64,000 nucleotides of DNA, taken from Actinomycetota bacterium. GTDB lineage: Bacteria > Actinomycetota > JAHEXW01. Made by a program: the position numbers and the translations under genes. The DNA is taken from NCBI GenBank assembly GCA_025355855.1, contig JANXYU010000032.1, forward strand, positions 28,832 to 92,831. The letters run 5' to 3'. The notes under the pieces are model-generated. The model searched no databases and was not told where the DNA came from. It saw only the letters and a list, made by a program, of their open reading frames with translations. Position 1 is the first letter of the stretch. Every line of letters begins with the position of its first letter. This document shows, in pieces, positions 22,556 through 56,681 of the stretch.

Positions 22556-22600
22556 AATTTAAACCCCCTGATGAATAGTCATTTCGAGAAATCTACTTCA

Positions 22601-22622
22601 TTACTCCATTTAAATGGAGTAA
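22601..22622. promoter_or_regulatory. 22-bp perfect palindrome TTACTCCATTTAAATGGAGTAA (copy 1), in the hisG promoter region
   Basis: Identical core to the copies at 44631-44652 and 45185-45206. It lies about 46 nt upstream of the hisG start and overlaps the likely -10/+1 region. Confidence 0.55.
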
Positions 22623-22672
22623 TGACGTTTTGCCAAGTCAGCAATTAGATTAGGTAATTGTAGCATAATCGC

Positions 22673-25474
22673 CTATTTAAGAACGTCCTTGAGGAATTGC
22701 CCGGTATAGGATTTCTTGGTCTTAGCGACGGTCTCCGGTGTACCGGCTACAACTAGCCGACCGCCCCCGGCCCCGCCCTCGGGCCCCAGGTCTATCAGCC
22801 AGTCAGCGACCTTGATGACATCTAGGTTGTGCTCGATAACGATTATCGTATTGCCCTGGTCGACAAGGCGATTGAGAACCTCCAGCAGTTTGGCGATATC
22901 GGCGAAATGCAGACCTGTCGTCGGTTCGTCGAGGATATATAAGGTGCGCCCGGTGGCGCGTTTGGCCAGTTCGGCCGAGAGCTTCACGCGCTGCGCTTCC
23001 CCGCCTGACAAAGTCGGCGCCGGCTGGCCCAGCTTGACGTAGCCCAACCCAACATCGTAAATCGTTTCCAGCTTGCGTTTGATGACCGGGATCTTGTCAA
23101 AGAACGCCAAACCCTCTTCGATACTCATGTCGAGAACCTGAGCGATGTTTTTGCCTTTAAACTTGATATCGAGCGTTTCGGCGTTGAATCTCGTCCCTTT
23201 GCATACCTCACAGGTAACATAGACGTCCGGCAGAAAATGCATCTCGATCTTTATTTGGCCATCGCCGTGGCAATTCTCGCAACGGCCGCCGGCGACGTTG
23301 AAGCTGAAGCGACCCGGCTTGTAGCCGCGCAGTTTTGCCTCAGGCGTCATCGAATATACCTTTCTGATCTCGTCGAAAGCTTTGATATAGGTCGACGGAT
23401 TACTGCGGGGGGTCCGACCGATAGGCGACTGGTCGATCTCGATAGCTTTATCGATATATTCCAAACCTAAAATCGCCTCATGCGCTCCGGGAATCACGCG
23501 GCTTTTGTAGAGCTTTCTGGAAACCGACTTCCAAAGAATGTCATCGACGAGCGTACTCTTGCCTGACCCGGATACCCCGGTGACGCAGGTCAAAACACCC
23601 AAAGGAAACTCTATGTCCATGCCGGTAAGGTTATGTTCGCGGGGACCTTTGATCACTATGGCAGAACCGTTGGACTCCCGCCGTTTGGCCGGTACCGCAA
23701 TCGTACGTTCGCCCCGCAGATATTTTCCGGTCAGCGATTCCTTAGACGCCATGATGTCTGCAACCGTCCCTTGCGCGACGATCTGTCCGCCATGCGCCCC
23801 AGCCGCCGGCCCGATATCAACAATATGATCGGCGGCCAGGATGGTCGCCTCATCGTGTTCCACCACGACCAAGGTATTGCCGATGTCGCGCAGGTGCTTC
23901 AGGGTCACGATCAGCCGCTCGTTGTCACGCTGGTGTAGTCCAATACTCGGTTCATCTAGAACATATAGTACCCCGACAAGGCCAGATCCGATCTGCGTGG
24001 CCAGACGGATACGTTGCGCTTCTCCGCCCGCCAACGTCGCCGCCGCCCGGTTGACCGTCAGGTAATCCAAACCGACGTCAACGAGGAACTTGACCCGCCG
24101 CTTAATCTCTTTCAAAAGCCGCTCGGCTATCTGCGCTTCACGGTCATTCAGTCGCAGGTGCTCAAAGAATGACATCAAATCTCGTGCGGACAGTTCACCC
24201 ATTTCATAGATGTTAATCCCGCCAACGGTGACGGCCAATATCTCTTGTTTCAAACGGGCGCCGTGACAGGTTGGGCAAGGAACGAGGCTCATATACTCTT
24301 CCAGCTTATCCCTGGCATAATCGGAATCAGTTTCTTTGTAGCGTCTCGTTATGTTATTCAGCACGCCTTCGAATTTAGCGTGATGGGCATGTGTATAGCC
24401 GCTGACACTGCGGAACCGAACATAAACGCGTGTCTCGCCGGTGCCGTTCAGAATGACGTCTTTTTGCCCGTCCGTCAGGTCGTGCCAGGGCATGTCGATA
24501 TCGATGCCGTACTCTGCCGCGACAGCCCGAATCATCTGTGGATAGAAGTTGACTGAAGGTCCGGAAAACGGCGCTATGGCCCCCTCTGCCAAGGAGCGGC
24601 TGGGTTCGGGGATTATCAGATCAAGATCCGGTTGGACGCGCGACCCTAGACCGTCGCACGCCGGACACGCGCCGTAGGGGGTGTTGAAGGAAAAAGCGCG
24701 CGGTGATAATTCGCCGAAACTAAACCCATCGTTCAAGCAGGCATAGTGGGTCGAATATGATTCTCGTTCCCCGCCCACCTCGACTGCGATAATTCCATCC
24801 GCCAGCTTCAGGGCGGTTTCCACGGAATCGGCCAGCCTTCGCTTGACGCCTTCCTTGATGACCACCCGGTCGACTACCACGTCAATATTGTGCCGTACTT
24901 TCTTGTCCAACGCGATGTTCTCATCAAGTCCGTAGACTTCCCCGTCGATCTTCACCCGGGCATAGCCTTCCTGGCGCAGACGGTCGATCAGTTCCCGATA
25001 TTCACCTTTCCGGTCCCTCACGACAGGCGCTAAAATGGCCAGCTTCGTACCCGCGGCGCGGCCAGCGATCTGTTCGATGATCTGTGTGGCGCTTTGCTGC
25101 GTTATGGCGGCACCGCATACGGGGCAGTGGGGCGTACCTACTCTAGCGTATAGGACGCGCAAATAATCGTAGATCTCTGTTATCGTGCCGACAGTCGAAC
25201 GAGGATTCTTGGTTGTGCCCTTTTGGTCGATACATACGGCCGGGCTTAAGCCCTCGATGGAGTCGACATCAGGCTTGTTCATCTGTCCGAGGAACTGACG
25301 AGCGTAAGCGGACAACGACTCGACATAGCGTCGTTCTCCCTCGGCGTAGAGGGTATCGATGGCCAGTGACGACTTGCCGGATCCGCTCATGCCAGTCATT
25401 ACGATTAATTTGTTGCGCGGCAGTTCGATGGAAACATTCTTGAGGTTATGTTCGCGGGCGCCGCGAATGACTAT
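22673..25474 (-). CDS. uvrA: excinuclease ABC subunit UvrA (start unresolved; conserved N-terminus extends upstream of the first ATG and overlaps the uvrB stop)
   Basis: The track ORF of 908 aa begins [12 protein letters not shown]. The same frame upstream encodes [28 protein letters not shown], the canonical UvrA N-terminus. No in-frame ATG, GTG or TTG exists before the upstream stop at 25517-25519. The feature end is placed at the ATA codon 25472-25474. Confidence 0.85.
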
Positions 25475-27459
25475 TTTTTCTTCCGTTTTCCTAACCCTTC
25501 CTCTAACATATTGATTTCATCGCGAATTCGAGCCGCGTCCTCGAACCTCTCGGCGGCGGCGGCTTCCATCATCTCGTCCTTGAGAAGGCGCAATAGCATC
25601 TCGACTTCGTCTTTAGGCGCCTTCCGGATAGCCTTTATTGCGTCACGCGTTTCCGAAGTGTCGTCCATCTGGGAAGCGACCAGGATGTCGTTCACGGCTT
25701 TGCGGATGGTGGCGGGCTTGATGCCGTTCTTCTTATTATATTCCATCTGTAGCTTGCGCCGCCGGTTCGTCTCGGATATGGCCCGGCCCATACTGCCCGT
25801 GATTTTGTCCGCGTACATAATGACCTGGCCGCCGACATTTCGGGCCGCCCGCCCAATCGTTTGAATCAGCGATGTCTCGCTGCGCAGGAAGCCTTCCTTA
25901 TCCGCGTCCAGAATCAGGATCAGGCTGACCTCAGGCAAATCCAGACCCTCGCGCAGCAGGTTGATGCCAACCAGGCAATCATATTCGCCTCGCCGCAAGG
26001 ACGACAATATCTTGACGCGTTCCAGCGTAGCGATATCACTGTGCAGATATTGAACTCGCAGCCCAAGATCGGACAGGTAATCCGTCAAATCCTCCGCCAT
26101 CTTCTTGGTCAGCGTCGTGATCAGCACGCGTTCGTGTTTGTCGACGCGTTTCTTTACCTCGTTCATTAGGTCGTCCACCTGGTCTTTGGTCGGACGCACA
26201 ATAACTTCGGGATCAATCAAACCTGTCGGCCGGATGATCTGCTCGACGATGCGCGAACTCACTTTTCGCTCGAAGTCCGCGGGCGTGGCGCTCGTAAAAA
26301 CGATGGACTGCGTTCGCTCGACAAACTCCTCGAAACGCAGCGGCCGATTGTCGTAAGCGGACGGCAGGCGAAAACCATAGTCGACAAGCGTCTTCTTGCG
26401 GGCGACGTCGCCCCGGTACATGCCGGTGATTTGCGGCACCGTTATGTGGCTCTCGTCGATAATGGTAAGGAAGTCCTTGGGGAAATATGATAGCAACGTG
26501 TCGGGCGGCTCACCTGGTCCCCGACCCGAAAAATGCCGGCTATAGTTCTCGATGCCATTACAGTAGCCGACCTCCTGCATCATTTCCAAATCAAACTCAG
26601 TCCGCATCGTCAGCCGCTGGGCCTCCAGTAGCTGGCCGTTGTCCTTGAGTACCCTGAGGCGCTCGGCCAGTTCTTGCTTGATGGACACAAGCGCCTTCTC
26701 CATTTTCTCGGGAGCCGTAACAAAATGTGAAGCGGGGTAGATGACTGTGTCGGTTAGGACACGCTTGGTCCGCCCGGTTATGGGATCGATGACCTCGATC
26801 TTCTCAACCGTTTCACCATAGAACCCAATGCGCAGCGCGACTTCTTCGTAGGCCGGAAATACCTCCAGCACATCACCTTTCATGCGAAAGGTGCCTCGTT
26901 CGAGCACATAATCGTTCCGGTTGTATCTGATTTTGACGAGCTTCCTTAAAATCTCGTCTAAATCGTATTCGCTGCCGGTATTGAGCATAACGGTCTGGGC
27001 CAGATAGTCCTCCGGCGACCCCAAACCATAGATGCAGGAGACGCTCGCGACGATTACTATATCGCGGCGCGAGAATAGCGCCGAAGTCGCGGCATGGCGC
27101 AGACGGTCGATTTCTTCATTAATCGAAGAGTCCTTTTCGATGTAGGTGTCTGTTTGTGGTACATACGCTTCCGGCTGATAATAGTCGTAATAGCTGACAA
27201 AATAGGCGACCGCGTTGGTGGGAAATACTTCCTGGAACTCGCTCGCTAACTGGGCCGCCAGTGTTTTGTTCGGCGCGATCACAAGGGTCGGTTTTCCGGC
27301 TGCGGCAATCACGTTGGCCATGGTGAACGTTTTTCCTGAACCGGTTACGCCCAGCAGAGTCTGATATTTCTCACGCTCTTCTAGCCCCGCTAGTATCCCT
27401 TTGATAGCGTTTGGCTGGTCCCCGGCCGGTTGGAATGGGGAGACGATTTGGAAACCCAT
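25471..27459 (-). CDS. uvrB: excinuclease ABC subunit UvrB
   Basis: 662 aa with helicase motifs, a beta-hairpin region and a C-terminal UVR domain ([17 protein letters not shown]). Confidence 0.95.
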
Positions 27460-28280
27460 TAGCTGATTCGCTCCGCCCGGGCCATGGCCAGCCAGAAACT
27501 AAAACCGGCCAAAAAACCGAATAGGAGTGTTCCGATCCCTAACTTGAACGAGAAAAACACGACCGCTCCCCAACCGATCGGCATCTCTTCACCAAACAAA
27601 GATACAGCGGTAAAAGCCAGCGTGGCGACTAACGCAACGGCGCCCCCCGCCACCAATCCCCCGATGCCTTGGCGCAGCATGAGCCCCGCGTCCCATTCGT
27701 CACCGAACGCTTCAACTAACCCTAGGCAAAGGCCCGTAATCGGAAACGCCGCCACCCCGGCGACCATTCCGCCAATCCCGCTGGCCAGCCAGGCGGCAAA
27801 AGTCTGCGCCGCCGGCTTTAACCCCAGGATCAGGCCGACCCATATTGCCACGCCCGTTAAGCCAGCTAGTAACCGGACAACCGGCACTATGTTTTTCTGA
27901 TCAGCCAAGTTGCCAGCCACCGCCCCGCTGATCATAGTAAATAAGCCAGTGATAAGTAAGAAATACGATAAAGCGGGCTTGTTTATCATCACGCCGAGCC
28001 ACAGAAACTTAAATATCGGCAACCCGATTGCCTGGAACAAGCCGAGAAACAGGAGAAACAACCCTCCGGCTGATATAGCGATCAGGCCTCCGCGGCTCGC
28101 CAAAGCTGCCGAGGGCCCTAGGGGCTTTGACGCTTGCTTTCTCTCAGGCCGGGTCGGTGCCTTGGCGCCAGAAGTCAAGGCGACAACAGGTGCTTCTACG
28201 CGTTCGAAGAATGACAGGTGACAGAGATTACAAAACTCCGCCCCGTCTGGATTTACGGCTCCGCACTTGGGACACTCCAT
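27459..28280 (-). CDS. zinc-ribbon domain-containing polytopic membrane protein
   Basis: N-terminal [19 protein letters not shown] zinc ribbon followed by a Gly/Ala-rich multi-TM region. The start is probably the ATG for MECPKCG. Confidence 0.45.
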
Positions 28281-28281
28281 A

Positions 28282-28908
28282 TTACCCTCCATCGGCCGGC
28301 AACTTCTCAATCAGTTCATCCAAACGCCTGACGACAACATCGGGCGCGGCTTGGTTCGTATTCCTGACGCCCGCGACCAAAATAGTCTGACAGCCGGCGC
28401 TCAGCCCGGCCGCGACGTCGATATCGGTGTCTCCGATATACCAGGCGTCGGCCGGCCCCACGCCTAAACGAGTGCACGCCGCGATAACGACAGCTGGGTC
28501 AGGCTTCAGGGGGAACCCGTCGCCCTCACCCAGGACGTCGTCAAAGTACTCAAATAAGCCAACACCGCGCAGGATATCCACCGCGAGACCGCGATTTCTA
28601 TTGGTTACTATAGCCGCCGGTATGTTTCGGCGCCGCAGCTCACTCAATAGTTCTGAGGCCCCGGTGAGAATTTTAGTACGAGTCGCGAACCCTGTCAGAT
28701 ACAGACGGTGATATTCAGCGACATGCACTTCAGGGTCCGGCAAAAACCTGGCCAGCAGCGGGGTTAAACCGACCCCGATCAGCTCCACTATTTCGTCGCG
28801 CGATGCCGGCGGCCGTCCGAGCTCGTCCAGTAAGGCGTTGACACACCAAACGATTGCCTCGTCCGAGTCGATAAGCGTACCGTCCAAATCAAAGAGCGCG
28901 GCTTTCAC
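28282..28908 (-). CDS. HAD family hydrolase (phosphoglycolate phosphatase-like)
   Basis: Motif I FDLDGTLIDS; the C-terminal part contains GDTDIDV. Confidence 0.7.
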   Translation of the reverse strand: MKAALFDLDGTLIDSDEAIVWCVNALLDELGRPPASRDEIVELIGVGLTPLLARFLPDPEVHVAEYHRLYLTGFATRTKILTGASELLSELRRRNIPAAIVTNRNRGLAVDILRGVGLFEYFDDVLGEGDGFPLKPDPAVVIAACTRLGVGPADAWYIGDTDIDVAAGLSAGCQTILVAGVRNTNQAAPDVVVRRLDELIEKLPADGG

Positions 28909-29525
28909 CCGGCCCGCTCCGGGCCGGTCCGACGTGCCGTCGCGACGATTTTTTCCGCTGCGGCCGCTAGCGCAGAACGATCGGCGGTATTCTCGATTAT
29001 CATATCAGCGTACTTGACGCGCTCTTCGTCCGGCATCTGTGCCGCCATGCGCCGGCGAGCTTCTGCCTGCGTGCCTCCCCGGAAATTAACTATCCGATTG
29101 ACACGTACCTCTTGCGGCGCTGTCACCACAACATTCAAATCACCTACGTCGGCCAGGCCGGCCTCCAGCAAAAGCGGGGCGCGCAGAATGACGATTGCGG
29201 CCAAGGGTAAGGTCCGCCTTAGTTCCGTCAAGCGCTCGTTTATCGTGGCGGCGATTATGGGGTGCGTGATGTTATTTAGGTCACTTAGCGCGGTTGGGTC
29301 GTTAAAAACGATGTCAGCGAGTGTTGCTCTATTAATCAAGCGGCCGCCAGCCAGGATGCCCCGTCCGAAACGGTCAACAACCGCTTGATACGCGGGACCG
29401 CCGGGCGCCATCACCTCATGCGCGATCGTGTCGGCGTCGACAATAGCCGCCGCTTCCGGCCGCAGGTATTCTGTCAAAGCGCTCTTACCGGAGGCGATGC
29501 CGCCCGTTATGCTGATGACGAACAT
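28905..29525 (-). CDS. coaE: dephospho-CoA kinase CoaE
   Basis: P-loop ITGGIASGKS. The start was reassigned to the ATG at 29525, which has AAGGAG 6 nt upstream. Confidence 0.85.
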   Translation of the reverse strand: MFVISITGGIASGKSALTEYLRPEAAAIVDADTIAHEVMAPGGPAYQAVVDRFGRGILAGGRLINRATLADIVFNDPTALSDLNNITHPIIAATINERLTELRRTLPLAAIVILRAPLLLEAGLADVGDLNVVVTAPQEVRVNRIVNFRGGTQAEARRRMAAQMPDEERVKYADMIIENTADRSALAAAAEKIVATARRTGPERAG

Positions 29526-29566
29526 AGTCACTCCTTCTGTTGCCTTAGTTTCTCTAAACAAATAAA

Positions 29567-29604
29567 GCGGCCGGCTTACATTACAAAAGCTGTAAGCCGG
29601 CCGC
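29567..29604 (-). terminator. rho-independent terminator downstream of rpsA
   Basis: A 14-bp perfect stem GCGGCCGGCTTACA/TGTAAGCCGGCCGC is followed on the minus strand by UUUAUUUGUUU. Confidence 0.6.
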
Positions 29605-29635
29605 TATAGGATGCTGTTTTAGGACGCGTTTTGGC

Positions 29636-31228
29636 TTAGCCCTTGGTTTCCTTCTTCATTTCTTCCAAGATGGCTTCCAGAGTTCCAGGCTCAGCCGCTG
29701 GTTCGTCCTTCTTCGGCTTCGATTCTTCTGCAACCGCCTCGGGCTCAGCGGGCGCGGGAGCTTGCTCTGCCGACGCCATTAAATCGGGGCTGGTCAGCTC
29801 GGCAGCGTCAATTGGCTCAACCTCTCTACCGACAGACTCGACATCGCGTAAGGTTCTTTCGATAGCCGATTCTTTCATCGTGTCATCCGGCGCCGCTATT
29901 GCTTCGGCTGCGGGTTCCGCTGCAACTTCGACAGGTTCCGCTAAGGGCGCCGCCTCTTCAAGCGACGTAGCCGCCTCTGGTGCCTCGGCCGCGGGCTCAA
30001 CCGGTTCTTCGGTCATAGGTTCGGCCGCTACCGGCTCTTCCTCGGCCGCGGGTTCAGCCGCAACCTCGACAGGTTCAGCTGCAGGCGCCTCGGCTTCGGT
30101 TTCATCGGTATTGTTAGCCGCGCTGGCCTGTTTCAGGCTGAGCGACAGGCGATGGCGTTCCAATTCGATATCGACCACCTTAACCTGCACAATTTGTCCG
30201 ACATCAACAATATCGCCCGGGAATTCCACGCGTGAATCAGCCAACTCCGAAATGTGAATCAGACCTTCGACACCGTCGGCGACCGACACAAACGCTCCAA
30301 ACGGAACGATCTTCATTACGGTTCCGGTCACAATCTCTCCCGCAACCAGTTTCTTGACTGTTTCTTTCCATGGGTCAGGCTGGCATTGTTTCAGACCCAA
30401 TGAAACGCGGTTGCGATCCTTCTCAACGTTCAAAATCTGTACGGTCACTTCATCGCCTACCGCGAGAACTTCCGAGGGATGATCGACGTGACCCCAGGAT
30501 AGTTCGGAAATGTGCACCAAACCATCAATGCCCCCGATGTCGACGAACGCGCCGAAGGAAACGATGGACGAAACCGTGCCTTTAACCGTCTGACCCGGTT
30601 CCAGTTGCTCGAGAAGCTGTTTCTTCTCTTCTTTGCGCAACGTGTCCAAGAAGGCGCGTCGAGACAGAACCACGTTGTTGCGACTTCTGTTCAACTCGAC
30701 GATTTTGCATTCGAATTCGGTCCCGATATAGGTCTTGAGATCCTTGACGCGCTGGGTGTCAACGAGGGAGGCCGGCACAAAACCGCGCAACCCGATGTCG
30801 ACGATCAAGCCGCCCTTTACGACCTCGATAACCTGGCCCTTGACCGTTCCGTCTATTTCCTTGATGGCGTCCAACCGCTGCCAAACGCGCTCGTATTCAG
30901 CGCGCTTCTTGCTGAGAATCAAACGGCCGTCTTTGTCTTCTTTCTGTAAAACTAGCGCGTCGATGGTATCGCCCAGCTTGACGACCTCTTCAGGCGAGAC
31001 GCCATAGCGGATGGATAGTTCCCGAGCGGGAATCACACCTTCAGATTTATAGCCGATATCGACCAATACCTCGTCCCGGTCAACCCGGACTATTTGGCCG
31101 GTGACGATATCCCCATCGCTGAAGTTCCTGATGGTTCCGTCGTAATCCGGTTCAATCTTCCCTGTTTCCGCGTTTCTTAAAAAACCTTCTTCCAGTACTT
31201 CGTTTTCTATTTTCTCTTCCATAGGCAA
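29636..31228 (-). CDS. rpsA: 30S ribosomal protein S1 with an acidic Ala/Glu/Pro-rich C-terminal extension
   Basis: Four S1 domains are followed by a low-complexity tail of about 150 aa containing duplicated AEPVEVAAEPAAE. Confidence 0.85.
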   Translation of the reverse strand: MPMEEKIENEVLEEGFLRNAETGKIEPDYDGTIRNFSDGDIVTGQIVRVDRDEVLVDIGYKSEGVIPARELSIRYGVSPEEVVKLGDTIDALVLQKEDKDGRLILSKKRAEYERVWQRLDAIKEIDGTVKGQVIEVVKGGLIVDIGLRGFVPASLVDTQRVKDLKTYIGTEFECKIVELNRSRNNVVLSRRAFLDTLRKEEKKQLLEQLEPGQTVKGTVSSIVSFGAFVDIGGIDGLVHISELSWGHVDHPSEVLAVGDEVTVQILNVEKDRNRVSLGLKQCQPDPWKETVKKLVAGEIVTGTVMKIVPFGAFVSVADGVEGLIHISELADSRVEFPGDIVDVGQIVQVKVVDIELERHRLSLSLKQASAANNTDETEAEAPAAEPVEVAAEPAAEEEPVAAEPMTEEPVEPAAEAPEAATSLEEAAPLAEPVEVAAEPAAEAIAAPDDTMKESAIERTLRDVESVGREVEPIDAAELTSPDLMASAEQAPAPAEPEAVAEESKPKKDEPAAEPGTLEAILEEMKKETKG

Positions 31229-31300
31229 AACTTGTGTTACCTCCTCGTATAAGATTATTTTACTTTACCACAAATTGAGAGGTTAGCCATAACTGGGTGC

Positions 31301-33925: not shown

Positions 33926-33955
33926 GTTAAGAAGTGTAGCAGAACAAGCTAGGTT

Positions 33956-35745: not shown

Positions 35746-35853
35746 TATTTGATCCGCCTTGATAAGATTTTGCTGGCAATCATTACCACTATTTAACCAC
35801 GATGAGCAGGGCGAAGCAATAATATCGTGGTCTACGGGCGGCCTTGATAAACC

Positions 35854-36594: not shown

Positions 36595-37847
36595 AAGCTA
36601 AGACGCTCCTTTCTTAGAGCCTCCGGGAAGACCGCATAGCCAAAATTATCACTGATTAAGTCGTGTTTGAAAGCCTTTACATTGACCTGATCTTTTATCA
36701 GGCCGGTCATAATGCCGGCGCGATCGATGTCGTTGACAAAGACGGCCCCAACTAGCCGGTTATTGTGAATGATTACCTTCTTATAAGTGAGACTCTCGGC
36801 GTCGGACTTGGCTAAGATCTCGTATTCGGGTCCGACCGCGTCATACAGGCCAACCGTAATAGTCGGCAGGCCTTTGACCTCAATCGAATTCATGCCAAAG
36901 CTGCCCTTATAGGCCAGCCGTTGGCCGGCCATGTTAACTCCCGCCGTGCGGCCTTGCTCGTAGGCGTTCGGCCAAATGGGCTGAGGACGACGAATGTGAC
37001 GCAAAACATCGAAAGTCTCGACACAGTCGCCTGCCGCGTAGATATCTTTCGCGCTCGTCTTAAGATGCTCGTCGACGATGATGCCGCGTTCTTTCTTGAT
37101 TTTGGCCGTGTCGGCCAGCTTCGTGTTCGGCACAACGCCGATGGCGACAACGACAACGTCGGTTTCGACGGTTTTTCCGCTCTTAAGCGTTACACTAGTG
37201 ACGCTGCCTTCTCCATCCCGGTTAATTGACCCCGCCGTATCACCTGTAATCAGGGTGACACCCAGAGATTTTAAGTGTGTGCCGAATATCTGACTGGCCT
37301 TTTCATCCAAGATGGTGCTCAAGACGCGGTCAGCCAGTTCGACTACCGTCACGTTTAAACCCAGGTTCAGCAAACCTTCCGTAGCTTTCAGGCCGATCAG
37401 GCCGCCTCCGATGACAACGGCGCGCTCGGCTTTCTCGGCTGCTTTAGCCAGTGCCTTCGCGTCGTCCCATTTGGTAAAGGTAAAGACGTCCGAGCCCGAC
37501 AGATTTTCAATCGGCGGCACAAAGGGCGACCCTCCGGTGGCGACCAGGAGTTTTCCGTATTTGATTTTCTTACCCCCGACTGTAACTGTATGCGCGGCGT
37601 CGTCGATTTCAGTGACTGGATTTCCAAGCATAGGCTTGACGTCATAATCGCGATAAAATGTCTTCGGCCGGAAATACATATTATGCGGTTCAACCTTACC
37701 GCCTAAGTAATATGAGATCAACGGCCGTGAATACGTGTGATGGGGCTCGTCGGAAATAACAGTGATCGAGCCGGTCTGATCTACTTGACGGATTCCCTCG
37801 ATAGCGCCGATCCCGGCGGCCGAGTTACCGATAATCACGTAATCCAT
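36591..37847 (-). CDS. FAD-dependent pyridine nucleotide-disulfide oxidoreductase (probable NAD(P)H-oxidising partner of the split glutamate synthase)
   Basis: Rossmann motif VIIGNSAAG near the N-terminus and a second GG-type motif VVIGGGLIG. It lies inside the GOGAT cluster. Confidence 0.7.
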   Translation of the reverse strand: MDYVIIGNSAAGIGAIEGIRQVDQTGSITVISDEPHHTYSRPLISYYLGGKVEPHNMYFRPKTFYRDYDVKPMLGNPVTEIDDAAHTVTVGGKKIKYGKLLVATGGSPFVPPIENLSGSDVFTFTKWDDAKALAKAAEKAERAVVIGGGLIGLKATEGLLNLGLNVTVVELADRVLSTILDEKASQIFGTHLKSLGVTLITGDTAGSINRDGEGSVTSVTLKSGKTVETDVVVVAIGVVPNTKLADTAKIKKERGIIVDEHLKTSAKDIYAAGDCVETFDVLRHIRRPQPIWPNAYEQGRTAGVNMAGQRLAYKGSFGMNSIEVKGLPTITVGLYDAVGPEYEILAKSDAESLTYKKVIIHNNRLVGAVFVNDIDRAGIMTGLIKDQVNVKAFKHDLISDNFGYAVFPEALRKERLSL

Positions 37848-37850
37848 AGG

Positions 37851-38327
37851 CTAGTCCTCATCCTCGACGACGAATAATGCCGCGTTCGGACAAGCCGCGA
37901 CGCAAGCCGGCTCGTCCAGCTCCAGGCAAAGGTCGCACTTGCTGGCCGCCTTGTCTTCGCGCAGATCCCGCTGAATGCCGCCGTAGGGGCAAACCATTAC
38001 ACACATCCAACAACCGACACATTTCTCGCGGTCATGGAGAACGGCGCCGGTCACCGGGTCTTTGTGGAGAGCGCCTGTCATGCAGGCGATAGTACACGGC
38101 GGATCTTCACAATGCCGGCACTGCAGAGCAAACGTAAGCGGTTTGCTTTCCTCAACCAAGACGCGCGATAAGGCGCGGGGCGTCTCCTCGTTGAAGGCGC
38201 GGATTATATTCTTTGATTTACTATGGGCGACTATACACGCAACCTCGCACAACTTACAGCCGATACAAACATTTTCGTCCGCCTGAACCCGGCGCCTCTT
38301 CTTATTTGTTTTTGCTTTTGTAGCCAT
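37851..38327 (-). CDS. 4Fe-4S dicluster ferredoxin-domain protein
   Basis: Multiple CxxCxxCxxxCP motifs. The start was taken as the ATG at 38327 (MATKAK...), which has AGGAG 8 nt upstream. Confidence 0.65.
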   Translation of the reverse strand: MATKAKTNKKRRRVQADENVCIGCKLCEVACIVAHSKSKNIIRAFNEETPRALSRVLVEESKPLTFALQCRHCEDPPCTIACMTGALHKDPVTGAVLHDREKCVGCWMCVMVCPYGGIQRDLREDKAASKCDLCLELDEPACVAACPNAALFVVEDED

Positions 38328-38337
38328 TGTGTTGCTC

Positions 38338-39852
38338 CTATTCCCCGGCGTGCATGACGCCGAGAACATCCAATTCACGTTCATTTAGACCAATGGCGCG
38401 CAAGTGCAGGCGGTTGCCGCGTAGGCTTTCAATCGCGTTAATTCCCATGCCGCCTAGAATCTCTTTGATCTCCAATGACCAGGCGCGCAACAGGTTAGTT
38501 AGGCGCTGGGTACCGATTTCCGGATTGACGCGTTTGGTAAGATACGGATCTTGCGTTGTTATGCCCCAGGGACATTTGCCGGTATAACATTTTTGACAGA
38601 CGGTGCAACCCAGCGATATCAGCGCGGCAGTACCGATATAAACGGCGTCCGCTCCCAAAGCGATCGCCTTGACCACATCGGTTGAATTGCGGAAACCGCC
38701 CGCGACAATCAGCGAGGCGTTGTTGCGAATACCCTCTTCACGCAGGCGTTGATCGACCGCGGCCAGGGCCAGCTCGATCGGCATACCAACAGAGTCACGC
38801 GTCCGGGTCGGCGCCGCGCCCGTACCGCCGCGCAAACCGTCCAGTGTGACAAAATCGGCGCCGGCGCGAACGATACCGCTGGCGATGGCGGCCGCGTTAT
38901 GAACCGCCGCGATTTTCACACCGACAGGTTTCTTGTATTCAACCGCTTCCTTAAGCGCGTAAATCAGCTGGCGAAGGTCTTCGATGGAATATATGTCGTG
39001 GTGCGGCGCGGGGCTCAACGCGTCCGTGCCGACCGGTATCATTCTGGTGATTGAGATTTCCTTGTCTACCTTCTCACCGGGAACGTGGCCGCCGATGCCC
39101 GGTTTAGCACCCTGACCTACCTTGATCTCAACTGCGGCGCCAGCGTTAAGATATTCGCGGTGCACCCCGAATCGTCCGGAAGCGCATTGAACAATCGTAT
39201 TCGGTCCGTATTGGTAGAAATCGCGATGCAACCCGCCCTCGCCGGTATTGTACATAGTACCGGACGCTGTCGCGGCGCGAGCCAGTGACTGACAAACGTT
39301 ATAGCTGATGGCGCCGTAGGACATCGCGCCGAACATCATTGGCGTCTCCAATGTAAGCTGGGGCGGCAATTCCGTTTTAAGGACCGGTTTGCCGTTGACC
39401 AACTGGACATCCACCTGGTCCGGCTTGCGCCCGATGAACGTTCGCAATTCCATTGGCTCACGTAGGGGATCGATGGACGGGTTGGTCACCTGGCTGGCAT
39501 TCAACACCAGGTGGTCCCAGTAGATGCGGTGGTGCAGTTCGTCGCCGGTGCTAGACAGCAGCATCCCGCCGGTTTCCGCTTGCTTGCAGATGTCCTTCAC
39601 GGCCCTATACGGCCAGTTGCCATGCGGCCTTATCGTTGATTTGTGAGGTTGAACCGATAACGCCCGGGTTGGACAATACTCGACGCATCGCTGACAGCCG
39701 ACACACTTAAGTTCGTCTTCAAACATCCGGTCGGCGTCGGCGTCATAAGAATGAACTTCGAACGAACACTGCCGCTCGCAAACCCGGCAGCGGATGCACT
39801 TGTAGTCGTCCCGTTCAACCTGAAACTCGGCTTTGATCAGACTTTTATGCAT
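38338..39852 (-). CDS. glutamate synthase FMN-binding domain (GltB domain 2) with N-terminal 2x[4Fe-4S] ferredoxin fusion
   Basis: N-terminal CIRCRVCERQC...CVGCQRCVEYCP, followed by the conserved glutamate synthase central-domain region (FMN binding and the 3Fe-4S cysteines). Confidence 0.85.
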   Translation of the reverse strand: MHKSLIKAEFQVERDDYKCIRCRVCERQCSFEVHSYDADADRMFEDELKCVGCQRCVEYCPTRALSVQPHKSTIRPHGNWPYRAVKDICKQAETGGMLLSSTGDELHHRIYWDHLVLNASQVTNPSIDPLREPMELRTFIGRKPDQVDVQLVNGKPVLKTELPPQLTLETPMMFGAMSYGAISYNVCQSLARAATASGTMYNTGEGGLHRDFYQYGPNTIVQCASGRFGVHREYLNAGAAVEIKVGQGAKPGIGGHVPGEKVDKEISITRMIPVGTDALSPAPHHDIYSIEDLRQLIYALKEAVEYKKPVGVKIAAVHNAAAIASGIVRAGADFVTLDGLRGGTGAAPTRTRDSVGMPIELALAAVDQRLREEGIRNNASLIVAGGFRNSTDVVKAIALGADAVYIGTAALISLGCTVCQKCYTGKCPWGITTQDPYLTKRVNPEIGTQRLTNLLRAWSLEIKEILGGMGINAIESLRGNRLHLRAIGLNERELDVLGVMHAGE

Positions 39853-40955
39853 GATGGCGCTTCCTTGACGATGTCTTTTTCAGGCTTAAGATTGGCGATT
39901 ACAGGCTCACCGGCGGTAGGCATCCAAACACGGTCGGGCGAGGCAATCTCCCTAATGGCAGCCTCTTCGTTCGCGATATACAGGATGTCGCCTTTCTCGG
40001 CCGCCACCAGTGGGCGCAATTTTATACGATCATTGATGCCGACCATGCCGTCTTTGTGGCCGAGAATGAAAGCGAAGGGACCGTTTAGCAGGCCGCTTCC
40101 ATAGACCTGACGCAGAGCGGTCAACGCTTTACGCTCCTCCTCTGGCAGGTGATCGATTTGGGACCAGAACGGCGCCGCGATAGCCATCGTGGCGACCTCG
40201 ATAGAGAGTTTGTGCCGGCGCAGCAACATGTCAAATAAGTACGCGGTGACTTCAGTATCGGTCATCAGGGTTGCCTTATAGCCGAACATTTCCAGGTATC
40301 TTTTGTTAATGCCATACGAGGAAATCTCGCCGTTGTGAACGATCGACCAGTCCAGCAACGTAAATGGATGCGCCCCGCCCCACCAGCCGGGTGTATTGGT
40401 TGGAAAACGTCCGTGCGCGATCCAGGTCCAAGCCTTGTATTCATCCAGCTTATAAAAGCGACCGACGGCCCCGGGGAATCCTACCGCTTTGAAGGCGCCC
40501 ATGTTCTTGCCGCTGGACATGACGAAAGCGCCGGGAATCTCGGCGTTGATAAACATGACGGCATTGACGACGTAGTCCTCTTCGTCGCAAGCGTTCATGT
40601 GCAAGACTTCTTCGTCAACGTTAAGGAAATATCGCCAAATCAAAGGGGGGTCAACAATGCCGGCTGTCTTGCGGGTCGGCAACTCGTCGTCCTCAATAAT
40701 CAAGAAATGCCGGTCGAGATACTTTTCGGTCGCTTCTTTAGCGTCAGCATCCGTATAGAGCATATGGAAAGCATAATCGTCCTTGTGCTCCGGGTAGATG
40801 CCGTACGCGGCGAACCCGCCGCCTTGGCCGTTGCTGCGTTCGTCCATGTTGCAGATACTGGACATTATCGCTTCGCCATCAACGCGATTTCGGTTCCGGC
40901 TGATAAAGCCGGTTAAACCGCAGGCGCTCATATCTTTTTCAAAACGATAGTGCAC
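39837..40955 (-). CDS. class II glutamine amidotransferase domain subunit of glutamate synthase (GltB domain 1)
   Basis: Ntn-type GATase. GTG start at 40955 with AGGAGG 5-6 nt upstream. A short propeptide (MHYRFEKDMSA) precedes the nucleophile Cys in CGLTGFI. Confidence 0.8.
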   Translation of the reverse strand: MHYRFEKDMSACGLTGFISRNRNRVDGEAIMSSICNMDERSNGQGGGFAAYGIYPEHKDDYAFHMLYTDADAKEATEKYLDRHFLIIEDDELPTRKTAGIVDPPLIWRYFLNVDEEVLHMNACDEEDYVVNAVMFINAEIPGAFVMSSGKNMGAFKAVGFPGAVGRFYKLDEYKAWTWIAHGRFPTNTPGWWGGAHPFTLLDWSIVHNGEISSYGINKRYLEMFGYKATLMTDTEVTAYLFDMLLRRHKLSIEVATMAIAAPFWSQIDHLPEEERKALTALRQVYGSGLLNGPFAFILGHKDGMVGINDRIKLRPLVAAEKGDILYIANEEAAIREIASPDRVWMPTAGEPVIANLKPEKDIVKEAPSCIKV

Positions 40956-41078
40956 TTACGCCTCCTAATGCGAGGGCAACTTGAGTCCTCGTGCTAAGCG
41001 TTTAAGCAGCGGGAATATTACTTAAAGAGGTTTTTGCCTATTAGAATATCTTAGGCCCTGACACGGGCCTGCGTCAAA

Positions 41079-42410
41079 CTAAAGGACAGGCAGATACTTC
41101 TTGAGTTCATACTCTGTGACCTGGATGCGATAATCTTCCCATTCCTGCTTTTTCACATCTATGAACCGGTTGAAAGTATGGTCGCCAAGAGTTCTCTTGA
41201 CCAGCTCGCTTTTCTCGGTTATGGCAATCGCTTCCCCTAGACTGCCCGGCAGAGATTCGATGCCCAGACTCTGGCGCTCGGCGTCAGTCAGATGATAAAG
41301 ATTCTTCTCCATCTGGTCAGGCAGCTCGTATTTCTTTTCGATGCCGTCCAGGCCGGCGGCCAGTAAAACCGCGAAGGTCAAATACGGATTGCAAGCTGGA
41401 TCGGGGCTGCGGAATTCGGCGCGTGTCGCTTTTTCTTTGCCAGGCTGGTATTCAGGCACCCGGATCAAAGCGCTGCGATTGCGTCGCGACCAGGCGACAT
41501 AGACCGGCGCTTCATACCCTGGAACCAGTCTTTTATAGCTGTTGACCCACTGAGCAAAGATAGCGGATATCTCGCGGGCGTGCTTTAGCTGGCCGGCGAT
41601 GTACTGTTTCCCGGTTTCGGACAGGAAGTTCTCATCGTCAGCGTCGAAGAAGGCGTTCTTCGAGCCGATGAATAACGACTGGTGGGTATGCATCCCGCTG
41701 CCGTTTTGGCCGAAGATTGGTTTGGGCATGAAGGTGGCGTAAACGCCGGCCTTCGTAGCGATCTCTTTAACGACCAAACGATAAGTCACGGCGGCGTCGG
41801 CCATTTTCAGTGCGTCGTCATACCTGACATCGATCTCATGCTGGCTCTCGCCGACCTCGTGATGGCTGTATTCGATGCGAATGCCCATGTCTTCCAAAGC
41901 CAGAACAGTGTCCCGGCGCAGATCGGAAGCGTTGTCGAGCGGCGTTAGGTCGAAATAGCCGCCCTTGTCGATGACTTCCGTGCCTTCGCTGTTTTTAAAG
42001 TAGAAGAACTCTAGCTCCGGCCCGACATAAAAGTGGTCAAACCCCATCTTTTTGGCCCGCTCCAACTGACGCTTTAAGATATAACGAGGATCGCCGACGT
42101 AGGGCTCTTTTTGGGGAGTGAGAACATCGCAGATCATCCTGGCTACGCCCTGTTCAGAGGGCCGCCAAGGGAGAATCTGGAACGTCGATGGGTCCGGCAT
42201 GGCGATCATGTCGCTCTCCTCGATGTCCTGGTAGCCGGTTATGCTGGAACCGTCGAAACCCATTCCCTGATCGAGCGCCAACTCTAGCTCGGCTGCCGTC
42301 ACCGCGAAACTCTTAAGGACGCCCTGCATATCCGTAAACCACAGACGGATGAACTTGATACCTTTATCTTTGACCGTTTTTAAAACGTAGTCCCTGTCTT
42401 TCGCAACCAT
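41079..42410 (-). CDS. glnA: glutamine synthetase type I
   Basis: GS-I signatures FDGSSI, the ATP-binding region and the catalytic domain. The start was reassigned to the ATG at 42410, which has GGGAGG 8 nt upstream. Confidence 0.9.
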   Translation of the reverse strand: MVAKDRDYVLKTVKDKGIKFIRLWFTDMQGVLKSFAVTAAELELALDQGMGFDGSSITGYQDIEESDMIAMPDPSTFQILPWRPSEQGVARMICDVLTPQKEPYVGDPRYILKRQLERAKKMGFDHFYVGPELEFFYFKNSEGTEVIDKGGYFDLTPLDNASDLRRDTVLALEDMGIRIEYSHHEVGESQHEIDVRYDDALKMADAAVTYRLVVKEIATKAGVYATFMPKPIFGQNGSGMHTHQSLFIGSKNAFFDADDENFLSETGKQYIAGQLKHAREISAIFAQWVNSYKRLVPGYEAPVYVAWSRRNRSALIRVPEYQPGKEKATRAEFRSPDPACNPYLTFAVLLAAGLDGIEKKYELPDQMEKNLYHLTDAERQSLGIESLPGSLGEAIAITEKSELVKRTLGDHTFNRFIDVKKQEWEDYRIQVTEYELKKYLPVL

Positions 42411-42483
42411 AGGTTTGCCTCCCAAATAGCGACCTAGCAGCTAATACAATGACAAAGGTATAGTATAGACGAAGGGGGCGGAA

Positions 42484-43521
42484 ATGACAAAAATGCCGGA
42501 GCTGAGACAGTTGATAGCGGACCGAATACGTGCCGAGGGCTCGCTTACGTTCCGGGACTATATGGCGATGACTCTATATGAGCCGGGGCTTGGCTATTAC
42601 ACCAGCGGCCGCAATCCGATCGGTCGCGGCGGTGACTTCTATACCAGCCCGACTTCCACGCCGTTGTTCGGCCAATTGCTGGCCCGCTGGTTGACCGAGC
42701 GATTTCTTGAATTGGGTGCAGGGTCCGCGACGATTGTCGAAATGGGCGCCGCCCGCGGCGTTCTGGCCCGCGACATCAAGACGGCGTTGCACGACGGGCT
42801 CCCGGCTGACTTTGGCAAAGTAGAATACGGTGAAGTCGAATACGGCGATCCCATACCGAATGTCGCTAACGCCTGCGTGATTTCAAACGAGCTCATCGAT
42901 GCTTTCCCCGTCCACCGAGTTCGCATGACAAGCGAAGGTCTGCGTGAAATCTCCGTCACGCTCGACAAGGAAACAGGCGGCTTTGTCGAACGCCTCTGGC
43001 CTCCATCCTCCTCTCGGCTCCCGGCATATCTAGATTATCTAGGTGTCAATCTGCCGGAAGGGTTCGTGACCGAGATCAATCTGGCCGCCGTCGACTGGCT
43101 AAACGAGGTCGCCGCCGACCTCGAAAGCGGTTTTGTCCTAACTATCGACTACGGGTACGAGTCCGACGAGCTCTATGCGCCGTATCGCGCGGCGGGCACG
43201 ATGATGGGGTATTATCGGCATCAACACTCTGATGATCTGTTCGCCCACATCGGCAGGCAGGACATGACCAGCCACGTGAATTTCTCCGCCCTTATGAAAT
43301 ATGGCGAGGCGGCGGCCCTGGAAACCGTGTCTTTCACGACCCAGAGCGACTTTTTGATCAGGCTAGGTGCGCTAGAGTTGCTAGAAACATTGCAGAACAA
43401 GTCTATCGGCGACGCCGCGGCCCTGCGAGATTATCTGGCGCTAAAAGGGCTATTGATGCCGGATGGCATGGGCGGCGTATTTAAGGTCTTGGTGCAAAAG
43501 AAAAAGGCGCCGGCTAGCTAA
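42484..43521 (+). CDS. class I SAM-dependent methyltransferase, MidA/NDUFAF7 (DUF185) family
   Basis: FRDYMAMTLYEPGLGYY...GDFYTSP is the DUF185 signature. Confidence 0.75.
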   Translation: MTKMPELRQLIADRIRAEGSLTFRDYMAMTLYEPGLGYYTSGRNPIGRGGDFYTSPTSTPLFGQLLARWLTERFLELGAGSATIVEMGAARGVLARDIKTALHDGLPADFGKVEYGEVEYGDPIPNVANACVISNELIDAFPVHRVRMTSEGLREISVTLDKETGGFVERLWPPSSSRLPAYLDYLGVNLPEGFVTEINLAAVDWLNEVAADLESGFVLTIDYGYESDELYAPYRAAGTMMGYYRHQHSDDLFAHIGRQDMTSHVNFSALMKYGEAAALETVSFTTQSDFLIRLGALELLETLQNKSIGDAAALRDYLALKGLLMPDGMGGVFKVLVQKKKAPAS

Positions 43522-43570
43522 GGCCGACGCCCGCAAAAATATACGGCTTACCGGCCTGCGTAAGGCAGGG

Positions 43571-43879
43571 TCATAGCTGTCCGTTCGGGAAAGTCCGCCA
43601 CTCATAAGAATAAGTCGAGTAAGCATACGAAACGCTGGCTCCGGCGGCTACGGTTATCGTCTTTTCGGGGCCCGGCGCGGATATCAAAATATAGTCTGTT
43701 CCATTAATCGTCAGCGTATAGGTCCAGCCGTCCGGAAGGCTCGTCGCATCAAAATGAAGATCGTACGTCGCCGGTGGCAGCAGCGTCAGCGCCTCGACGG
43801 CGCTTGCAGCTGAGCTCAACCCCGCAAACATGATTGCCGTCGCCATAACCAGCCCTACTGTCTTGCAAAACCTGTACAT
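43571..43879 (-). CDS. hypothetical small secreted protein
   Basis: 102 aa with an N-terminal signal peptide (AIMFAGLSSAASA). Confidence 0.35.
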   Translation of the reverse strand: MYRFCKTVGLVMATAIMFAGLSSAASAVEALTLLPPATYDLHFDATSLPDGWTYTLTINGTDYILISAPGPEKTITVAAGASVSYAYSTYSYEWRTFPNGQL

Positions 43880-44165
43880 AATCGGTCTCTTTTTTCTAAG
43901 TTATCGTTGCCCGTAAAAGGCAGTTGCGTCGGCTGTCCGTCCCGGCTAAAACGGGAAGTCGGCTGTTTTTTCGTCAAAGACGGAAGTGCCGCTAATCATC
44001 GGTTGTATCATCGGGCCCTCCTTGGTTCCTCCAGCGGGCAGAAGAGCTCTCGTGAAGAACCAGTCTCCAGGTAATCCCGCAAAATGATAGCTGCCGCTCG
44101 GTTTTCACTAAGACTATCTGAAAACCATAAATATGCAAAGACGAGGCAGCGTGGGGATAGCGAGC

Positions 44166-44194
44166 AAGATGGTCGCCGCGATTTTGCTATAATC
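44166..44194 (+). promoter_or_regulatory. candidate promoter for tRNA-Leu (extended -10 TGcTATAAT)
   Basis: TGCTATAAT at 44186-44194, 9 nt upstream of the tRNA 5' end. The -35 (CAAGAT) is weak. Confidence 0.45.
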
Positions 44195-44203
44195 CTTGTT
44201 GTG

Positions 44204-44290
44204 CCGGGATGGCGGAATTGGTATACGCGACGGTCTCAAACACCGTTGGGGGTAACCTCGTGCGGGTTCAAGTCCCGCTCCCGGCACCAG
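44204..44290 (+). tRNA. tRNA-Leu(CAA)
   Basis: Manual fold gives a GCCGGGA/TCCCGGC acceptor stem and a GCG/CGC D-stem. The anticodon stem is ACGGT/ACCGT with loop CTCAAAC, giving anticodon CAA. There is a long variable arm, T-arm GCGGG-TTCAAGT-CCCGC, discriminator A and an encoded CCA. Confidence 0.9.
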
Positions 44291-44630
44291 CTCGATTCGG
44301 TTACGTGTCTGGCGGGTACTGTCAAGACAGACTTCCCCCACTGCGTGCTCGCCGACTTTTTAGCCTGCGCGCGCATCGGGGGTCCCCTCCAGGCGTGTCA
44401 CCAGCCATCGTCGAACAGGCCAATCACCCTAGGCCGCTCGCTCATTAGGTAAACAAATGTGCGGGATACGGGCGAAAACCCTAGACACCTGTAGGCGCCG
44501 CGTCTTTAGACCGGCGTGTCTACCTTTAAGGTCGACCCCAATAAGCCCTCCTCGCCAAGACATTTGGTCGTGATTGCCGCGACGCACGACCATCAACACT
44601 TCTTCGGCCCGAAAAACGTCGGAGCGCCCT

Positions 44631-44652
44631 TTACTCCATTTAAATGGAGTAA
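44631..44652. promoter_or_regulatory. 22-bp perfect palindrome TTACTCCATTTAAATGGAGTAA (copy 2), upstream of the TrpR-family gene
   Basis: Identical core to copies 1 and 3. It lies 55-75 nt upstream of the GTG start at 44707, just upstream of a TTGATA-N17-CATATT promoter-like element. Confidence 0.55.
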
Positions 44653-44706
44653 AATAAGTAGCCAAATGTTATTGATATTTCACAGATTCTATGCCATATT
44701 AGGTTT

Positions 44707-45165
44707 GTGACGAACACCAAGAATCATGCTCTCCTTCCCGACCAGAAGGTGTTAGCGGTTACCATCGGTTTGCAGGAAAGTATCTCCGGAGTGCATACTC
44801 CCCAGGAAGCTGCCCGTCTGTTGGAAGTCATTTTGACGCCGCAAGAAATACGCACAATCGCGATACGTCTTCGGATCATGAAAATGCTGCGCGCCGGCCA
44901 TAATTATGTGTCTATCCAGCAAGAACTGTGCGTTTCACCAGGAACAATTGCTCGAGTACAACTGAACCTAGAACACGCTCAAGACGCGCCAAAGCGAGGC
45001 AGCAAGGCGCGCGCGGAGAAGGCGGCTTATCAAAACAAACAAGGCCCCGATCATTCCAAAAAACCTGCTTACAGTACGCGTAGCAAGTACGAAGAATGGC
45101 AGTGGCCGGCGGAAGCGGTCACTTCAATCGTAAGGGCAATATCAGAAACGAGAAAAAGAAGATAG
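44707..45165 (+). CDS. TrpR-family (YerC/YecD-like) DNA-binding protein; candidate HisR-type repressor
   Basis: GTG start. LLEVILTPQEIRTIAIRLRIMKMLRAGHNYVSIQQELCVSPGTIARVQ matches the TrpR/YerC helix-turn-helix core. The C-terminal tail is basic. Confidence 0.6.
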   Translation: MTNTKNHALLPDQKVLAVTIGLQESISGVHTPQEAARLLEVILTPQEIRTIAIRLRIMKMLRAGHNYVSIQQELCVSPGTIARVQLNLEHAQDAPKRGSKARAEKAAYQNKQGPDHSKKPAYSTRSKYEEWQWPAEAVTSIVRAISETRKRR

Positions 45166-45178
45166 CCCTTCCTTGTTT

Positions 45179-45210
45179 ACTTCTTTACTCCATTTAAATG
45201 GAGTAAAGAA
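45179..45210. promoter_or_regulatory. 32-bp perfect palindrome CTTCTTTACTCCATTTAAATGGAGTAAAGAAG (copy 3, contains the 22-bp core)
   Basis: It lies between the convergent 3' ends of the TrpR-like gene (stop 45165) and accA (stop 45288). It could act as an operator copy, a bidirectional terminator hairpin, or both. Confidence 0.55.
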
Positions 45211-45287
45211 GTCGGAGAACTGGCTCCTGTGATTGGGTATGGGAGGGGTTAAGGATTCGGCAAAATGCGGATTTCGCCTTCCCCGCT

Positions 45288-56623: not shown

Positions 56624-56681
56624 AATACGTCCAGTTTAGCATACTCATAGATATCCTCAGCGGCGAGTGCCGACAGGGGCG

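Follow-up and report, generated by a model that had tools for sequence, protein, structure and literature searches.

The 64-kb stretch of contig JANXYU010000032.1 analyzed here (the window), from an uncultured Actinomycetota lineage, contains three identical palindromes, one in front of hisG and two on either side of a gene encoding a small TrpR-like protein. The locus raises the question of whether the palindromes are operators that join this protein, its own gene and hisG in a regulon, as was proposed in a preliminary description of the sequence, or whether they reflect hairpin formation, mobility or some other function of the protein. The sequence comparisons made it quite probable that the palindromes are operators of a HisR-like regulator that acts on its own gene and on hisG. 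The proposed regulon link was supported by the covariation of the protein and its sites in a sister genome, by the HisR-type geometry of the sites and by the protein itself, the nearest relatives of which are of the YerC/HisR type. The elements on which the argument turns are the following.

21683-22555, minus strand: hisG, encoding the long form of ATP phosphoribosyltransferase, which includes the C-terminal regulatory domain (PF01634 and PF08029; TIGR00070, 170 bits); the proposed target
22598-22625, no strand: copy 1, palindromic without mismatch over 28 bp (core 22601-22622), between uvrA and hisG; a candidate leader operator of hisG
22657-22667, minus strand: conserved block TATGCTACAAT, with a TG-extended -10 element (TACAAT at 22662-22657); putative hisG promoter
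44630-44653, no strand: copy 2, palindromic without mismatch over 24 bp (core 44631-44652); candidate autoregulatory operator
44672-44700, plus strand: promoter-like element TTGATA-17-(TG)CATATT, the -10 of which is separated by 6 nt from the GTG at 44707
44707-45165, plus strand: TrpR/YerC(HisR)-like regulator, 152 aa, identified by a PF01371 match, a fold model and family alignments
45179-45212, no strand: copy 3, a 34-bp perfect palindrome (core 45185-45206); candidate downstream operator

The 22-mer, TTACTCCATTTAAATGGAGTAA, was matched exactly at the three core positions, as had been claimed, where no match was expected (100 shuffles), and no further match with up to 3 mismatches was found within the window. 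Apart from the three copies, no perfect even palindrome with arms of at least 9 occurred in the 64 kb. The palindrome around copy 3 measured 34 bp, not the 32 bp given previously, and the guanine plus cytosine (GC) content of the window was approximately 55%, below the figure of about 60% that had been ascribed to the genome. None of the copies was next to a U-tract on either strand and a terminator scan flagged none of them; a canonical intrinsic terminator was rejected, the hairpins being stable but lacking the U-tract. An abundant repetitive extragenic palindromic (REP) element or generic repeat, the alternative named in the preliminary description, was not seen and was rejected as well: there were three copies in 64 kb, and in five other loci of 14-20 kb the flanking palindromes were found nowhere but at the regulator gene. 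Within the window and these five loci, membership in the REP or miniature inverted-repeat transposable element (MITE) classes was not indicated, as the copies were few and no transposase was nearby. Neither the 20-mer core nor the regulator protein had a match in viral, phage or plasmid collections.

Copy 1 lay about 50 nt past the uvrA stop codon and ended 45 nt upstream of the hisG ATG. Copy 2 was 20 bp upstream of the TTGATA-17-CATATT element, and thus just upstream of the regulator promoter as described, with its center near -65, i.e. about 65 bp upstream of both the GTG start codon and the probable transcription start. Since the -10 element ends 6 nt before the GTG, the regulator mRNA is probably leaderless. 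Copy 3 started 14 nt past the regulator stop codon, and the gene calls confirmed that it is situated between the convergent 3' ends of the regulator gene, which is downstream of tRNA-Leu(CAA), and accA. Copies 2 and 3 are therefore identical dyads placed about 550 bp apart around the regulator gene.

The evidence that carries the most weight came from a sister genome, GCA_023251915.1, the loci of which (L026 and L028) were found through members of 90%-identity clusters. The nearest named relatives of the window HisG were listed as 'MAG: Actinomycetota bacterium' (MAG, metagenome-assembled genome). The sister loci were collinear with the window and the flanking genes had 78-86% nucleotide identity (accA, 86%), with 95% for the tRNA-Leu. 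An ortholog of the regulator (P0002, L028 12705-13160) was present between accA and tRNA-Leu, but the protein identity was 48% and the regulator modules themselves (L028 11904-13561 and window 44289-45298) had no BLASTN similarity. In L028, a 222-aa open reading frame (ORF) with no Pfam hit on record also occurred between accA and the regulator gene.

The P0002 gene was flanked on both sides by CATTACTTCACTTAAGTGAAGTAATG, downstream at L028 12663-12694 and upstream at 13211-13242, and the sister hisG leader had TTACTTCACTTAATTGAAGTAA at L026 9932-9953, 47 nt upstream of the ATG and in the same place as the window site. A site in the regulatory region of a histidine biosynthesis gene was thus kept in both genomes. 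The sister site, TTACTTCACTTAAGTGAAGTAA, was found at all three orthologous places, with one mismatch at hisG, and differed from the window site in that position 6 and its mirror position 17 had been switched symmetrically (C/G to T/A) at all three. Concerted change of this kind is predicted for a co-evolving regulator-operator set. Because the three sites changed together with the regulator, chance, a sequence-independent hairpin and independent repeat insertions do not account for them. As judged from the alignments, the regulator and its three sites covary between the two species, and it is the change of the hisG-leader site in concert with the regulator-flanking sites that supports reading the palindromes as operators.

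The closest described system is HisR, the ortholog group of B. subtilis YerC, a TrpR-family histidine-dependent repressor found in Firmicutes, some Coriobacteriia, Proteobacteria and Synergistetes (PMC9413887, Ashniev et al. 2022). HisR and TrpR are shorter than 100 aa, the structure 3G1C is that of E. eligens HisR, R. gnavus HisR binds DNA in vitro in a histidine-dependent manner, and autoregulation occurs in about half of the HisR genomes (PMC9413887). The HisR operator is a 20-bp palindrome with the consensus cacTTTAnnnnnnTAAAgtg (cacTTTA-N6-TAAAgtg) (PMC9413887). When aligned on the dyad, the central 20 bp of the window site, TACTCCA-TTTAAA-TGGAGTA, had the same 7-6-7 geometry and agreed with the consensus at 4 of the 7 half-site positions, while the sister half-site, TACTTCA, agreed with cacTTTA at 5 of 7. 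The window system thus resembles HisR in belonging to PF01371, in its nearest structures (3KOR, 3G1C and 3FRW), in having a palindrome of the same geometry with a related half-site, and in the presence of one site upstream of its own gene and another before a histidine biosynthesis gene. It differs in several respects. The protein has a basic linker, a W-P pair with a C-terminal helix and an N-terminal NTKNHAxLSDQ arm, the operators bracket the gene on both sides, and the sole site at a his gene is that of the stand-alone hisG, in the leader past the -10, and not that of the hisD operon. Moreover, the host belongs to a lineage outside the coverage of the HisR study (PMC9413887), and homologs of the subfamily are abundant in bacteria of the Candidate Phyla Radiation (CPR), where the sites are not near his genes. 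The narrowly missed YerC threshold, the extra N- and C-terminal elements, the bracketing operators, the leader site at a stand-alone hisG and the CPR-rich subfamily together make this a variant of the HisR-type system.

The E. coli TrpR has the same fold, is autoregulated and has a palindromic operator with an A/T-rich center of the TTAA type (trpO, TGTACTAGTTAACTAGTACA), and the site variant of L003 has the same AGTTAACT center. However, in each half-site the ACT triplet of trpO is 2 bp out of register with the window operator, so the HisR register fits better, and a TrpR-type register was rejected. In addition, the score of the window protein against TIGR01321, the model for TrpR proper, was far below the cutoff (22.9 bits, cutoff 67.25), and the trpB-like gene in the window has a T-box instead.

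Operators that flank a gene or lie within it are found in the lac (O1/O2), gal (OE/OI) and deo systems, and binding in a leader can act as a roadblock, e.g. PurR at purB. By analogy, the window has two identical dyads around the regulated gene and one dyad in the hisG leader past the putative promoter. TrpR-family proteins are not known to form loops.

The 152-aa protein is a member of the TrpR family and has the TrpR fold. Residues 23-94 matched PF01371 (Trp_repressor) with 53.5 bits against a cutoff of 27. The AlphaFold 2 model had a mean predicted local distance difference test (pLDDT) score of 82, and above 90 for residues 11-95, and showed the all-helical TrpR-like fold with a helix-turn-helix (HTH); the top Foldseek matches in the PDB were 3KOR, 3FRW, 3G1C, 1ZT9 and 1TRO (E. 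coli TrpR), each with a match probability of 1.00. By sequence, the nearest PDB relatives were 3KOR (E 4.8e-7) and 3G1C (E 1.9e-4), together with 3FRW, as against an E value of about 0.9 for E. coli TrpR. The comparisons place the regulator nearer to the YerC/HisR type than to E. coli TrpR. The TrpR core (residues 11-95) is followed by a basic, low-confidence linker (96-130) and a C-terminal helix (134-151) after W133-P134. In a 39-sequence alignment W133 was invariant and P134 was present in at least 90% of the members, 38 of which matched TIGR02531, the NCBIfam YerC/YecD model, at E<=1e-3. The closest clade, P0002-P0008, had 34-48% identity and an invariant N-terminal arm, N..NHA.L.D (the NTKNHAxLSDQ arm noted above). 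A word-index homolog search with the single regulator protein retrieved only itself and a narrow-alignment search of metagenome loci retrieved two, whereas an exhaustive HMMER search gave 99 cluster representatives, many of them 150-190 aa and aligned over the full length, with a common core and C-terminal motif.

The block TATGCTACAAT upstream of hisG is the start of a 20-nt stretch, TATGCTACAATTACCTAATC, that did not vary between the window, L026 of the sister genome and L022; the remainder of the spacer diverged. Compared to L022, both palindrome-bearing genomes had about 40 extra bases, the site included, downstream of this block. The block was not flagged by a consensus promoter scan; its conservation suggests that it is the hisG promoter, in which case copy 1 would extend from about +29 to +50 of the transcript. 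Copy 1 had been described as overlapping the likely promoter or +1 region of hisG, about 46 nt upstream of its start. The proximity to the start codon was borne out, but with the conserved -10 block upstream of it the site belongs to the leader. A second promoter, TTGGCA-17-TTAAAT, with its -10 in the center of the palindrome, was considered and may exist, but the scan did not flag it and it is not needed. No T-box or His leader was found at hisG, and no known cis-regulatory RNA at either hisG or hisD, the only Rfam matches in the window being the T-box before trpB and tRNA. In the minimum free energy (MFE) fold of 22556-22600 (minus strand; z-score -3.7), the GGGGG ribosome-binding region was paired with the segment that follows the palindrome. 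The sister hisG leader had no significant fold, so this pairing is probably not meaningful, and a hairpin that sequesters the ribosome-binding site was not supported there.

Taken together, these features would be consistent with the following mechanism. A dimer of the 152-aa regulator would recognize the dyad xTACTCCA-N6-TGGAGTAx. Two operators bracketing the regulator gene would give autoregulation, possibly cooperative, by looping over about 550 bp, and copy 3 may also act as a hairpin terminator or insulator toward the convergent accA. Protein bound in the hisG leader would hinder promoter escape, initiation or early elongation on the gene of the first committed step in histidine synthesis; a dimer on an operator at about +29 to +50 would be expected to interfere with escape or elongation in particular. 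Both the binding of DNA by the regulator and the looping are deduced from the arrangement of the sites, and repression, as the sign of the regulation, is assumed from the precedent of TrpR and HisR. As effector, histidine is the favored candidate, a supposition about as apt to be wrong as right.

The bracketing of the gene by its own palindromes proved to be a property of the subfamily. All ten of the genes examined, from Actinomycetota and CPR (the window, L028, L016/L017, L018, two in L019, L020, L021, L010/L006 and L003), had on both sides a palindrome that was specific to the lineage but identical in geometry. Apart from those of the window and L028, they were as follows.

L016/L017 (40% ortholog, 55% GC): ATTCTCCGATTAATCGGAGAAT, upstream and downstream
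L018: CGATTATTCGAATAATTG, upstream, overlapping a TTGACA-17-AATAAT promoter, and downstream
L019, first gene: TAGTGCGATTAATCGCACTA, two upstream and three downstream
L019, second gene (16702-17145): TACTCCAATTAATTGGAGTA, four upstream and four downstream, in tandem repeats of about 63 bp (16439-17354)
L020: ATTCCATTTAAATGGAAT, two upstream and two downstream
L021: ATACTTCATTTAAATGAAGTAT, upstream and downstream
L003: TTAGTCCAGTTAACTGGACTAA, two upstream and two downstream
L006/L010: the window's own 20-mer, two upstream and one downstream

The upstream palindromes varied in position, between overlap with the promoter and about -90 as counted from the start codon, as expected of operators, and that of L018 covers the promoter, the classic position for autorepression, as read directly from the sequence. 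The second TrpR-like gene of L019 has an iteron- or centromere-like layout, and the first gene, 6 kb away, uses the other palindrome, TAGTGCGATTAATCGCACTA. The module was absent between accA and tRNA-Leu in L029. In L015, which shares the truB-GH15 synteny of L010, the gene had been deleted between the palindromes and one merged palindrome was kept.

The 20-mer core of the window site, TACTCCATTTAAATGGAGTA, occurred exactly at 15 loci (L001-L015) of a species-representative genome set, all of them in CPR/Patescibacteria MAGs with 28-52% GC. In both L006 and L010, a TrpR-like gene of 140 codons is enclosed by three copies, and its product matched PF01371 with 28.1 bits and had 22% identity to the window protein. 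The neighbors of the CPR sites included ileS/recO, an M29 peptidase, bipA and rmuC. The hosts of the 15 loci include Saccharibacteria and Paceibacteria.

Several observations weigh against operators of a HisR-like regulator, 1) the window protein scored 40.6 bits against TIGR02531, below the cutoff of 42.2, 2) with 152 aa it is not a short, single-domain protein of the HisR/TrpR kind, 3) in the aligned region of the long HisR helix, FFED is changed to LLEV and RFEV to RLRI, with the replacement of several acidic positions, 4) the hisG site is in the leader, past the conserved -10 block, where repressors are less commonly placed, 5) no palindrome copy, weaker copy, CTCC-N8-GGAG or half-site was present upstream of hisD or elsewhere in the window, 6) the palindrome was absent at the hisG orthologs of L022, L023 and L024 (84-92% protein identity), 7) the CPR copies not associated with the regulator gene itself were mostly 3-60 nt past stop codons, and of about 20 sites 8 lay in convergent spacers whereas divergent spacers had none, 8) no his genes were near the CPR sites, and no histidine pathway was present in the CPR loci viewed and 9) the dyad symmetry extended beyond the core, with at least 3 extra pairs in 30 of 56 sites (window and L001-L028; 1.1 expected) and at least 6 in 17 (0.02 expected), the flank sequence differing site by site.

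The designation of the gene as TrpR/YerC-like held for the family (PF01371) and for the nearest structures, of the YerC/HisR type, but the TIGR02531 cutoff was narrowly missed, and strict HisR orthology is uncertain given that score and the extra C-terminal region. The replacement of the acidic residues makes histidine binding uncertain. The lack of a copy at hisD, which had been recognized before, was confirmed by the scan of the window. Conservation of the motif upstream of hisG orthologs was found in the sister genome, at the same position and covarying, but not in L022, L023 or L024. L024, which has hisG without the site, and L016, which has a regulator gene, are from the same metagenome but not necessarily from one genome. 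With no his genes at the CPR sites, the proteins of this subfamily are not dedicated histidine regulators everywhere, and the hisG link is, by the distribution of the sites, specific to part of the Actinomycetota clade. The placement of the CPR sites at 3' ends is unlike that predicted for a factor acting at promoters. The extended symmetry, e.g. ACTTCTT/AAGAAGT around copy 3 of the window and GCTTACACCGA/TCGGTGTAAGC around the downstream copy of L016, is left unexplained by a dimeric helix-turn-helix protein alone and for this reason counts against simple operators; it suggests that hairpins or cruciforms have been selected for, or else that the palindromes underwent template-switch mutation.

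The extended symmetry is the main support for an improbable, but the most serious, rival explanation, that the palindromes are mainly RNA or DNA hairpins (terminators, insulators or mRNA-stabilizing stem-loops) and that the protein is irrelevant or acts via the hairpin, e.g. by roadblock-assisted termination. The downstream copies are mostly 3-77 nt past stop codons within palindromes of 32-44 bp, the CPR copies outside the regulator gene have the 3'-end and convergent placement described above, and some sites have flanking A-runs and T-runs like those of bidirectional terminators, e.g. AAAACGGAATACTTCATTTAAATGAAGTATTCCGTTTT in L021. The hairpins are stable as well, with z-scores of -4.9 to -5.9; the RNA hairpin of copy 3, which lacks a U-tract, gave -25.5 to -25.7 kcal/mol whichever strand was folded. 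However, hairpins alone leave unexplained the invariant core of 20-22 bp, the concerted switch at three loci and the association with a TrpR-like gene in 10 of 10 cases. Nor do they suit copy 2, upstream of the regulator promoter, or copy 1, within the hisG leader past the conserved -10; the window copies lack U-tracts and the L019 arrays lack flank extension. Operators and hairpin selection are combined in a broader proposal that is rather unlikely, though less so than hairpins alone: CPR/Patescibacteria and deep Actinomycetota would share a widespread YerC-like subfamily, not described so far, that consists of self-bracketed modules with fast specificity switching, and the palindromes at CPR gene 3' ends, selected as hairpins or cruciforms, would serve mainly as protein-assisted terminators or insulators or as another structure-dependent device, with hisG control a lineage-specific co-option.

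The deletion bounded by palindromes in L015 compared with L010, and the missing module in L029, are what a selfish or mobile cassette would leave behind, MITE- or REP-like or with a domesticated transposase HTH, the hisG copy then being a meaningless solo repeat. The module is also hyper-divergent (48% aa identity and no BLASTN match) between flanks that are 86-95% identical, and there was weak HTH_23/HTH_38 similarity, with IS630 matched at E of about 3e-4 by 3 of the 39 members. Yet no catalytic domain was found in the regulator and no transposase or recombinase gene adjoined it, the same synteny was kept in two Actinomycetota (accA-X-tRNA-Leu) and in several CPR genomes (truB-X-GH15), and the hisG copy is orthologous in two species while matching the regulator flanks of each. 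Given the syntenic position, the lack of mobility signs, the few copies and the absence of viral, phage or plasmid relatives, a mobile element is very unlikely. The least credible of the alternatives is that the protein binds these sites in a role other than transcription, centromere-like, iteron-like or chromosome-organizing, and that the hisG copy is incidental. Genes bracketed by their own sites are known from P1/F-type replicons and par loci. The regulator genes have such an arrangement, the second gene of L019 with 4+4 sites in its tandem repeats of about 63 bp being the most suggestive, and the sites are few per genome and, in CPR, largely independent of gene orientation. Against this, no partner NTPase or Rep gene was nearby, the loci are chromosomal and syntenic with no plasmid relatives found, and two species have kept the hisG-leader site, with covarying sequence. 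Moreover, all known members of the TrpR/YerC family are ligand-controlled repressors (PMC9413887).

If the palindromes are indeed operators of a HisR-like regulator, protein control of histidine synthesis of the HisR type would reach an uncultured Actinomycetota lineage. The 152-aa protein and its 22-bp site would be a ready experimental pair, and the sister species would provide a natural specificity-swap pair. The CPR bacteria, in which regulation is little known, would have a large, unstudied group of small TrpR/YerC-like proteins, and since the binding sites can be read from the gene flanks, regulons of unculturable, reduced genomes would become predictable. The finding also raises the question of why there are operators on both sides of the gene and why they continue as long hairpins.

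Several minor observations concern other his and trp genes. Upstream of hisD, at 56624-56700 (minus strand), TATGCTAAACT resembles the TATGCTACAAT block before hisG, and the two may represent a shared promoter type. In L025 (GCA_936416925.1; 9806-9880), GTCCAATTAATTGGAC precedes hisG by 178 nt, and a partial second copy, ATTAATTGGAC, occurs 60 bp further on; the element is of the family motif type but is not tied to a regulator. No palindrome was near trpB, where there was a T-box leader instead (RF00230, 48843-49106, minus strand; 96.4 bits, gathering score 93), directly upstream of the TrpB-like PALP gene (47351-48784, minus strand). This gene is followed by accD and accA in the window, and in L029 a complete trpEGDCFBA operon was present between it and accD. 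Finally, the his operon of two relatives closes with a gene directly behind hisI (L028 7048-7281, L029 1121-1354). Its 77-aa product is made up of an AsnC-type ligand-binding domain (PF01037) alone and could be another amino-acid-sensing component.

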